From the NCBI GenBank assembly GCA_900554365.1, contig USGY01000004.1, forward strand, positions 3,633 to 67,632: 64,000 nucleotides of DNA, written 5' to 3'. Source of the DNA: an uncultured Clostridium sp. Its GTDB lineage: Bacteria > Bacillota > Clostridia > TANB77 > CAG-508. Both the position numbers and the translations under genes were made by a program. The notes under the pieces were generated by a model, which saw only the letters and a list, made by a program, of their open reading frames with translations, ran no database searches and was not told the DNA's origin. Positions 28,294-29,385 of the stretch are shown here, piece by piece. Positions within the stretch are counted from its first letter, which is position 1, and each line of letters starts with the position of its first letter.

Positions 28294-29385
28294 CTACTTT
28301 AAGAATAAAGTGGAACGGAACCCACAACCGTTGTCAGCATTGTACGAATCATTGTCCCAACGGTAACCTGCGGGATTACCATAGGTGACGTAATTACCAC
28401 CGCGCACCACCACGGCCTCGGATGTATTTGGATTTAATTCTGTTGTAAATTCAGCTTCATTTCCTCCCATGTCATATATATTTGCAAAACTTGTTGTTAA
28501 TCCTGTATTTAACCTTGTTGCTGTGTTGGCCTTTTTTATTACTTTTCCAGTTTTGTCTTTTACTTCTTTATCATACCAGTTTCCATTGAAATTATCCCTT
28601 GATGTAGCATAATTTGTTGCGGTACTATGTGTTTGTATAAATTTTACTGCTGTATCCCATGCATAGCTTGAACAAAAATATGAATTTGCACTTTTTCCTG
28701 CATCTATTCCTTTTGCTTGTTTATATGCTTCACTCCATTTTATGTTTGCATATGGCTCTTGGTTAGCTTTTATTACTGCATTATTATTTTCTTTTCCTAC
28801 TTCATATCTTCCTATATAATATCCACCATTATTTTTTATACTTTCTTTTTCAATATTTACTTGTTCCACTATTTCATTTAATACAGCTGTTGTTATTCCA
28901 TTATTAGATTCCTCAGTTGATGGAGTTACTCCTGTTAATGTTAACTCATCTTTTATTGCTTTGGTATTGTTATCATTTTCTACTCCCCATGCTGTTTCTT
29001 CTCTTTTATATGAATCTTTTGTGCATGGTATCCATACATACTCATTTCCGTTTGAGCCAATTATTACAAGCCCTTTGCTTACAAGATTTTCACCTTCTAC
29101 GTTTGATACTGCAAATCCTGCTGGAATTTTAGCAGGATTTCCTTCTGCATCTATATAATTGTAGGCTTCTAAATGTGTACTTGCTTCTATTTGTGCTAGT
29201 TGCCTTTTTTCATTTTCAGCAGATTCTTCTGTTGTTTGTTTTGCTTTTTGTGCTTGTGTTAGTATTCCATTTTGTCCTGTTAGCATTGCTATTGATACAC
29301 CTGCAAGAATTAATAATACTATAATTGTTATTACTAGGGCTATCAATGTTATTCCCTTATTTTTTTGTGTGATTTTTTCTTTCAT
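28294..29385 (-). CDS. DGR variable protein: type IV pilin N-terminus fused to a C-type-lectin/FGE-sulfatase-fold domain
   Basis: 363 aa with a strong RBS (GAGGGAGGA). The N-terminus MKEKITQKNKG|ITLIALVITIIVLLILAGVSIAMLTGQNGILTQA is identical over 37 residues to the pilins at 16249-17206. The C-terminus has NIYDMGGNEAEF, VVRGGNY and GFRSTL (FGE/CLec fold). The last 38 codons are the VR. Confidence 0.88.
   Translation of the reverse strand: MKEKITQKNKGITLIALVITIIVLLILAGVSIAMLTGQNGILTQAQKAKQTTEESAENEKRQLAQIEASTHLEAYNYIDAEGNPAKIPAGFAVSNVEGENLVSKGLVIIGSNGNEYVWIPCTKDSYKREETAWGVENDNNTKAIKDELTLTGVTPSTEESNNGITTAVLNEIVEQVNIEKESIKNNGGYYIGRYEVGKENNNAVIKANQEPYANIKWSEAYKQAKGIDAGKSANSYFCSSYAWDTAVKFIQTHSTATNYATSRDNFNGNWYDKEVKDKTGKVIKKANTATRLNTGLTTSFANIYDMGGNEAEFTTELNPNTSEAVVVRGGNYVTYGNPAGYRWDNDSYNADNGCGFRSTLFLK
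28309..28422 (-). repeat. DGR variable repeat (VR)
   Basis: Differs from the TR at 13 positions, all TR adenines on the coding strand. Encodes ...SEAVVVRGGNYVTYGNPAGYRWDNDSYNADNGCGFRST. About 54% G+C. Confidence 0.9.

Follow-up and report, generated by a model that had tools for sequence, protein, structure and literature searches.

How the variable proteins of cellular diversity-generating retroelements (DGRs) are presented, and which ligands they bind, is largely open outside phages. This question is raised by a stretch of 64,000 nucleotides from an uncultured Clostridium sp. (contig USGY01000004.1 of assembly GCA_900554365.1; hereafter the window), in which a DGR acts on a gene for a protein of 363 residues. 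An initial annotation, made from the sequence alone, had described this protein as a type IV pilin fusion; the protein that it quoted is indeed the product of the open reading frame (ORF) at 28294–29385 on the minus strand. Following up this proposal, we conclude with moderate confidence that the target is a chromosomal DGR variable protein, built as a modular type IV pilin, which presents a diversified lectin module via the pilus machinery. The cell would probably show a reprogrammable adhesin on or through this machinery, and the pilin helix suggests a concrete route by which Gram-positive bacteria of gut and rumen could display such a protein.

A pilin-type helix at the N-terminus of the DGR target

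The target starts with a short hydrophilic leader that ends in glycine, MKEKITQKNKG, followed by about 20 hydrophobic residues, ITLIALVITIIVLLILAGVSIAML. Its residues 9–45, NKGITLIALVITIIVLLILAGVSIAMLTGQNGILTQA, are 100% identical to the N-termini of two tandem pilin ORFs at 16249–16698 and 16727–17233, such that the initially claimed identity of 37 residues holds for both pilins, the second of which runs on to position 17233. In tblastn searches of the window, we found exactly three copies of this helix, in the target and in the two pilins; a minor-pilin-like ORF at 14516–14968 gave a weaker, related match. The 111 nt that encode the shared stretch have about 30 synonymous sites; in comparison with the target, 18 changes are counted for one pilin and 19 for the other, none of them non-synonymous, against 3 differences between the pilins themselves. 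The initial annotation was therefore right about the many synonymous changes, and also about their meaning: 18–19 synonymous changes without a single non-synonymous one indicate that the shared helix is old and under strong purifying selection, rather than a recent copy.

The homology reaches beyond the identical residues. In a profile-profile comparison with hhalign, the pilin and target families align over 62 columns with 71% identity (probability 99.8%, E 1.9e-28), spanning target residues 6–67 and ending there, with the pilin head domain outside the alignment. We also built a family profile from 32 diverse relatives, which were taken from genome contigs and are 34–77% identical to the target; its N-terminal matches in the PDB are pilins only, namely Geobacter PilA-N (E 0.0022), MshA (E 0.037) and PilA (E 0.34). 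AlphaFold predicts helices at residues 8–36 and 41–68 with moderate confidence. Gly(–1), Thr(+2) and Leu(+3) do not vary among relatives with identities as low as about 35%, and the handle G/ITL[IV]AL (the slash following Gly(–1)) is retained in 123 of the 150 top cluster representatives. Judged by this homology, the N-terminus of the target comprises the entire alpha-1 helix found in the type IV pilins of its host. We reject an ordinary Sec signal peptide, as the hydrophobic stretch of about 23 residues follows an invariant Gly, shares its ancestry with alpha-1 of the pilins and is devoid of an AxA-type site.

The handle has its own residue preferences. Position +1 is Ile in the target and in 121 of the 123 representatives, and position +5 is occupied by Ala in 106 of them, by Ser in 8, Thr in 6, Val in 2 and Glu in a single one. 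Sub-threshold matches to curated pilin models were obtained for 9 of the 32 relatives; proteins with this handle have no precomputed Pfam domain and, where a source name is given, are called 'hypothetical protein'. By these residues, the lineage uses a type IV pilin handle of a non-canonical class. The other pilin-like proteins of the lineage likewise have Ile at +1; their +5 residue is Ala, Ser or Thr, with Asp in the ORF at 14934–15356 as the exception.

The same handle carries further modules in related genomes

In a set of 5.8 billion proteins, all 8,000 scored candidates for the target family were significant, with 1,135 clusters at 50% identity reaching E ≤ 1e-30. The family is unannotated: there are no precomputed Pfam domains in the match tables, and the few source names all read 'hypothetical protein'. 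Its hosts are uncultured gut and rumen Clostridia known from metagenome-assembled genomes (MAGs), for example Clostridium sp. CAG:245 and MAGs of Hadza, bovine and rabbit origin. One Hadza MAG, CAKPKJ01 (loci L001–L009 and L027), encodes at least nine lectin-fold paralogues.

In related MAGs (L001:7252, L007:3605, L030:4163, L079:12072 and others), the modules joined to this N-terminal handle include leucine-rich repeats (LRRs), namely BspA-type LRR_5 and LRR_4/LRR_8, as well as undetected domains, and the genes often stand in tandem with lectin-fold paralogues. As the helix carries other adhesin modules in these genomes, the lineage seems to use it as a general-purpose handle for display, and the gene content suggests a large repertoire of modular pilins.

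A probable lectin-type module that ends in the variable repeat

The remainder of the target ends, as had been stated initially, in the variable repeat (VR) of the DGR, which makes up its last 39 codons. The landmarks of the FGE-sulfatase fold that had been read from this part proved to be detectable in relatives, but not by Pfam in the target itself: neither Pfam (E ≤ 0.01) nor NCBIfam returned an FGE or lectin domain for the window protein, and it is 16 of the 32 relatives that match Pfam FGE-sulfatase (PF03781; best E 1.7e-7), 3 of them above the gathering score, at profile positions of about 130–253. Searched against the PDB, the family profile matches SUMF2 (1y4j, E 0.0024) and also PorK/GldK and FGE, and these matches cover the VR-bearing end, NIYDMGGN...RGG...GFR.

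Profile positions 71–368 recur as repeat units in giant proteins that have no pilin helix, indicating that this is a self-contained module onto which the helix has been grafted. Taken together, these matches assign the module to the FGE-sulfatase/C-type-lectin (CLec) superfamily, transitively via its relatives, because the window protein itself is unmatched and its AlphaFold models are of low confidence.

The type IV pilus locus

The cluster from which the helix is known lies 8–19 kb from the target gene, and its pilin genes are positioned between the pilO-like and the pilD-like genes (Table 1). It had been described as a complete pilM/N-O-pilA-pilD-pilB-pilT-pilC locus. This stands for PilB, PilT and PilC, which are recognized by NCBIfam, but less so for the other components: PilO is assigned by position only, the PilN match is weak, and the PilD-like protein has no detectable peptidase domain. 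Thirty homologues of the pilins have in common an invariant alpha-1 helix, behind which come a variable region and strands at the C-terminus; in this, the two small proteins behave like major pilins. They have neither a precomputed Pfam domain nor a source name, and their Pfam N_methyl matches are sub-threshold. We regard the locus as a divergent type IV filament system. A GxGDxKL motif was not evident by eye in the PilD-like protein.

Table 1. Features of the DGR and of the type IV pilus locus in the window
Feature	Position	Strand	Basis or remark
DGR target gene, 363 aa	28294..29385	-	ORF, pilin identity, profile match, family alignments; layout: leader residues 1-11 (ends Gly), 6-67 pilin-type alpha-1 helix, ~71-363 FGE-sulfatase/CLec-type module
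Complete pilin alpha-1 helix, residues 6-67 (leader end, hydrophobic alpha-1N, amphipathic alpha-1C)	29185..29370	-	common to host pilins
Putative ligand-binding module, residues ~71-363, FGE-sulfatase/C-type-lectin-fold superfamily	28297..29175	-	relatives and profile matches
VR, last 39 target codons	28306..28422	-	88% identical to template repeat
Avd accessory gene	27864..28235	-	Pfam bAvd PF22296, E 1e-15
OB-fold gene, 84 aa, between avd and reverse transcriptase	27607..27861	-	PF01336 E 5.8e-7, above cut-off
DGR reverse transcriptase, three frames	26562..27604	-	
Template repeat, 13 in-frame AAY codons	26418..26534	-	
RT-14 RNA, structured RNA directly 3' of template repeat	26276..26422	-	Rfam RF02921
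Type IV pilus gene cluster, pilC to pilM/N	10359..20149	-	NCBIfam, Pfam and position
PilC/GspF	10359-11708	-	NCBIfam
PilT	11745-12839	-	above NCBIfam cut-off
PilB	12858-14501	-	NCBIfam
Two minor-pilin-like ORFs (14516-14968, 14934-15356)	14516-15356	-	
PilD-like	15371-16183	-	Pfam A24_N_bact E 2e-29
Two tandem pilins, 149 and 168 aa	16249..17233	-	N-terminal 37 residues common with target
PilO-like ORFs	17297-18530	-	by position only, no family match
Fused PilM/N	18527-20149	-	weak PilN match

Proposed display of the module via the pilus machinery

Based on the homologies above, display of the module can be pictured as follows. The prepilin peptidase would remove the leader between Gly11 and Ile12, the hydrophobic alpha-1N would keep the protein in the membrane, and the PilB/PilC/PilM-N-O machine would lift it into the filament by helix-helix packing, as for the major pilins. 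Because the module is bulky and comes without a pilin head domain, it would most likely serve as a tip or priming subunit or else occur sparsely in the filament; retraction by PilT would then pull on the bound ligand.

Several observations weigh against this reading. Beyond residue 67, hhalign detected no homology to a globular alpha/beta pilin head in the target. At +5 the target has Ala instead of Glu, which is near-universal in assembling type IV pilins; this objection is eased by the absence of Glu5 from the locus's own pilins. The search with hidden Markov models that had been suggested initially came out negative for prepilin models (PF07963, TIGR02532), with a sub-threshold Pfam N_methyl score of 16.4 bits against a cut-off of 21.2 and no prepilin-domain match in NCBIfam. 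The class III prepilin signal proposed for the target is thus upheld by the Gly-ending leader, the hydrophobic stretch and the pilin homology, but not by Ala at +5, Ile at +1 and the scores of the hidden Markov models. The target gene also lies outside the pilus operon. In the membrane half of the PilD-like protein, Pfam gave no match to Peptidase_A24 even at E ≤ 10, nor did phmmer against the PDB reveal a peptidase domain, leaving the role of this protein as prepilin peptidase uncertain. Finally, the structure predictions are of low quality: AlphaFold2 reached a predicted local distance difference test (pLDDT) score of 51 when run on 103 close homologues, and of 57, with a predicted template modelling (pTM) score of 0.56, when run on 71 sequences down to 53% identity, with moderate confidence limited to the helix at the N-terminus and to the strands within residues 75–119. 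A Foldseek search of the model against the PDB returned nothing at E ≤ 0.001, with TaqVP, a DGR variable protein of Thermus, in third place at E 1.2. Modelling, which had been put forward as a check, accordingly yielded the N-terminal helices, but was uninformative as to the CLec fold and the clustering of VR residues on one surface.

Of these points, the lacking head domain, the absence of Glu5 together with sub-threshold pilin scores, and the position outside the pilus operon would also fit a membrane-anchored receptor, in which the pilin-like helix is a signal-anchor only, cleaved or not, and holds the lectin module on the membrane or wall without ever being polymerised. Large DGR surveys likewise give most cellular targets an N-terminal transmembrane segment or signal peptide (PMC8144416). 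An anchor, however, would leave unexplained why 37 residues have remained fixed in the face of near-saturated synonymous change, and why the identical handle is found in the operon pilins and in many adhesin-type paralogues. Since the conserved stretch is not confined to the membrane-spanning part, but includes the Gly(–1) cleavage context, the non-membrane segment TGQNGILTQA and alpha-1C, we regard a receptor of this kind as unlikely.

A different use of such machinery has been proposed for the Sulfolobus bindosome, where sugar-binding proteins with class III signals, which have no Glu5, are brought into place by a type-IV-pilus-like assembly for a function at the cell surface. In the present case, the machinery could similarly assemble binding proteins into a short, cell-proximal structure instead of long retractile pili. 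A single class-III-like handle on many binding-type paralogues, with at least nine CLec proteins in one MAG in addition to the LRR fusions, would be in line with such a pseudopilus, as would the lack of Glu5, shared with archaeal class III substrates, and a weak NCBIfam match of PilB to the bindosome ATPase BasE. This match, however, falls far below those to PilB/GspE; the locus contains the retraction ATPase PilT, scoring above its family cut-off, and true small pilins, the major-pilin genes typical of true pili. A bindosome-like structure therefore appears quite improbable to us. The bindosome itself is an archaeal device for solute uptake that involves no hypermutation.

The DGR cassette and its activity

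Downstream of the target gene, the cassette continues with avd, an OB-fold gene, the reverse transcriptase (RT), the template repeat (TR) and the RT-14 RNA. Over 117 nt, VR and TR are 88% identical, and 13 of the 14 mismatches fall on TR adenines, the remaining one being a C>T at the 3' edge. The TR has 13 AAY codons, as counted initially, and the order of 15^13 variants given for them amounts to about 1.9e15. The RT-14 match is full-length and scores 89.4 bits against an Rfam gathering score of 48.1; this RNA presumably forms the structured part of the DGR template RNA. The OB-fold gene, whose product is of a nucleic-acid-binding type, occupies the same position in 8 of 8 RT-bearing related loci, with 37–98% identity, and is a possible candidate for a DGR accessory gene, which would stand outside the Avd, HRDC, MSL and CH1 accessory classes given in PMC5758913.

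In the general DGR mechanism, TR and RT-14 RNA would be transcribed, and the RT, together with Avd and probably the OB-fold protein, would copy the TR with misincorporation at adenines; the resulting cDNA would then replace the VR. In the target, such rewriting would randomise the 13 AAY codons and a few Tyr/Asp codons.

The element is flanked by housekeeping genes (serS, infC, rplT), and a phage collection contained no relatives of the target, so that we consider the element chromosomal. On the same grounds, we reject a prophage tail fibre as the origin of the target.

Evidence for activity of the cassette comes from two comparisons. The first concerns the 90%-identity cluster of the target, which has 40 members, 15 of which were aligned (the window and 14 others). 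Residues 1–330 are almost invariant across them, and the variable positions in the VR, 331–337, 341, 345–346, 348–349 and 351–354, correspond exactly to the adenine-containing codons of the TR. The VRs vary from member to member, save that P0356 and P0358 have the same VR; that of P0366 is frameshifted. The second comparison involves three independent assemblies of the same species, two from bovine metagenomes and one from another sample (L080–L082), in which the gene order is kept. Relative to the window, the VR of these contigs has diverged by 14.5–16%, the RT by 0.3–0.7% and the flanks by about 0.4–1.9%, at a TR divergence of 0%, with 0 differences in strains L080 and L082. From these patterns, we conclude that this is a genuine DGR that has operated in the lineage; the turnover of the VR at the population level is evidence of ongoing diversification.

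Its reach may extend beyond one gene in some relatives. The Hadza MAG CAKPKJ01 contains a single RT cassette, in L004; relative to the TR of this cassette, the VR-like end of the paralogue in L003 has 13 mismatches at adenines and 4 at other bases, and that in L001 has 16 and 8. These two may be additional or former targets of the L004 TR. The remaining paralogues of this MAG have drifted.

Two further observations concern the target gene in the population. Its scaffold outside the VR (28423–29385) has diverged by 5.5–6% from L080 and L082, above the flanking housekeeping genes and the RT; possible causes are paralogues recombining with each other, or diversifying selection that acts on the scaffold. 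Besides P0366 with its frameshifted VR, there are P0012 and P0028 (329–334 aa), which break off shortly before the VR; the three variants may be null alleles arising from imprecise homing, or assembly breaks at a hypervariable region.

A split reverse transcriptase with conserved +1 shift sites

Three separate ORFs, of 117, 97 and 126 aa, make up the RT gene, a split that is missing from the initial annotation. The gene contains an extra C at 27262 (AGA CGG U, site 1) and another at 27039 (AUU CGG A, site 2), such that a +1 shift is needed at each. Removal of both Cs yields an RT of 346 aa with IGNYTSQ and YMDD motifs, whose alignment with phage DGR RTs runs uninterrupted through the two sites; absent such removal, the ORF is broken.

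For comparison, we used eight related loci in which avd, OB-fold gene and RT are all found. Seven of them have the additional C of site 1, namely L047, which is near-identical to the window, and six further loci (L004, L015, L018, L019, L026 and L036) from five species-level genomes, with the common codon context (AGA or CGC) CGG N AUG; in the eighth, L014, the RT is uninterrupted. Site 2 is common to L004 and L047 only. The RT ORFs, corrected where necessary, are 345–346 aa long in five of the six further site-1 loci, in L047 and in L014, and the RT of L015 carries an additional break. Both shift sites are also kept in the same-species strains L080–L082, despite the divergence of their VRs. 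The ratio of non-synonymous to synonymous divergence (dN/dS) between pairs of RTs is 0.04–0.21, at a synonymous divergence (dS) of about 1, in all three frame segments. CGG, the rarest sense codon, occurs once among the 15,119 codons of long window ORFs and accounts for 44 of 174,204 codons in the related loci.

A fossil DGR, with an RT pseudogene, a relic VR and an adhesin that has become fixed, would be compatible with the three RT ORFs and with the extra break in L015, but is very improbable, given that the site-1 C has persisted in the six further loci at this dS and dN/dS, that the RT has diverged less between strains than most flanks while the TR is identical and the VR is not, that VRs differ among cluster members, and that both shift sites are at the rarest sense codon. 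Given the conservation of the shift site and the dN/dS values, we reject the reading of the RT as a pseudogene.

The RT is instead a candidate for programmed +1 frameshifting of the ribosome, with CGG as the 'hungry' codon. Programmed +1 shifts at hungry codons occur in yeast Ty1 (CUU-AGG-C) and Ty3 (GCG-AGU-U) and in bacterial prfB. As in the Ty elements, a rare Arg codon would be in the A site, one base would be skipped, and the frameshift would gate RT synthesis. Re-pairing in the new frame is impossible for the P-site codons AGA or CGC, so that the mechanism would resemble that of Ty3. Our literature search found no report of +1 frameshifting in DGR RTs; if confirmed, this would be a new case of translational recoding controlling a mutagenic enzyme.

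The conservation of the sites and the selection on the RT suggest that its synthesis would proceed via a +1 frameshift at one or two CGG codons. We propose that this requirement keeps the level of RT, and hence the rate of mutagenesis, low. A wider reading, which we offer tentatively and hold to be possible at best, combines these elements. The pilus would be a general display platform, on which one Glu5-less helix presents LRR fusions and, in each genome, at least ten lectin-fold paralogues; a single retractable adhesin among them would be hypermutated by the DGR (~1e15 variants), and the rate of its re-specification would be gated by CGG +1 frameshifting in the RT. If this were true, hypermutation would be tied to the translational state of the cell or to its supply of CGG-reading tRNA.

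Relation to known systems

Modular type IV pilins are already known, as are pilus adhesins diversified by DGRs, and it is the combination of a modular type IV pilin with a DGR that appears new; our literature search turned up no account of a type IV pilin fusion as a DGR target. Modular type IV pilins with adhesin or lectin modules have been established by experiment in Streptococcus sanguinis, with a vWA module in PilB and a lectin module in PilC (PMC8179133, PMC9934059). The catalogue in PMC8179133, in which DGRs are not linked, includes the architectures IPR012902-IPR005532 (8 proteins) and IPR012902-IPR011460. Like the S. sanguinis proteins, the target has an N-terminal pilin handle fused to an adhesin or lectin module that is not specific to pili. 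Unlike in PilB and PilC, its handle comprises the alpha-1 helix only, with no beta-sheet head, and in contrast to both it is without Glu5 and its module is hypermutated by a DGR. The two architectures listed above we take to be a pilin motif with FGE-sulfatase and a pilin motif with DUF1566/Lcl_C, respectively.

A DGR-diversified pilus has been described in Bacteroides, where type V pilus tip adhesins are affected (10.1101/2024.11.15.621889). In both cases, on our reading, the DGR of a gut bacterium diversifies the adhesive component of a pilus. The Bacteroides carrier, however, is an unrelated type V pilus of a diderm, formed by strand exchange after lipoprotein processing, whereas here it is a type IV pilin helix in Clostridia; the Bacteroides paper makes no mention of type IV pili or Firmicutes. 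If our reading is true, the diversification of pilus adhesins by DGRs, recently described for Bacteroides and its type V pili, would also take in type IV pili, an unrelated system.

With the CLec variable proteins of other DGRs, Mtd of a Bordetella phage (PMC2408619), TvpA of Treponema, LdtA of Legionella and TaqVP of Thermus (PMC6328139), the target has in common the VR at the extreme C-terminus, the FGE-sulfatase/C-type-lectin-type fold, here putative and based on weak matches of relatives, an AAY-rich TR, adenine-specific changes and Avd. Those proteins, however, are phage fibres, lipoproteins or soluble proteins, and none has a pilin handle. The large DGR surveys do not mention pilins. When we consulted DGR catalogues for prepilin motifs, as had been suggested initially, the supplements of PMC8144416 contained no pilin terms, but one survey remarks in passing on a 'GspG-type pilin' domain among VR-bearing proteins (PMC11661182). 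Proteins of the present family have probably been filed as 'transmembrane' targets in the surveys. Moreover, since the RT is split by conserved +1 frameshifts, pipelines that need an intact RT ORF may miss DGRs of this type.

The 5' leaders of the pilin-like genes

The target gene is preceded by a leader of about 330 nt, which follows a promoter-like TTGACA-17-TAATAT (features at ~29500–29741 of the window, minus strand). An Rfam scan of this leader returned nothing credible; it contains an imperfect (CA)n tract at ~29620–29640 and a terminator-like hairpin at 29500–29516. Perfect (CA)n/(YA)n tracts of about 18–32 nt are found upstream of several paralogous pilin-like genes of related MAGs (in L005, L006, L023, L026, L038 and L049), and, in genomes of about 28% GC, a CA-rich tract precedes 9 of 95 such genes. 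These (CA)n leaders may serve in phase variation or attenuation.

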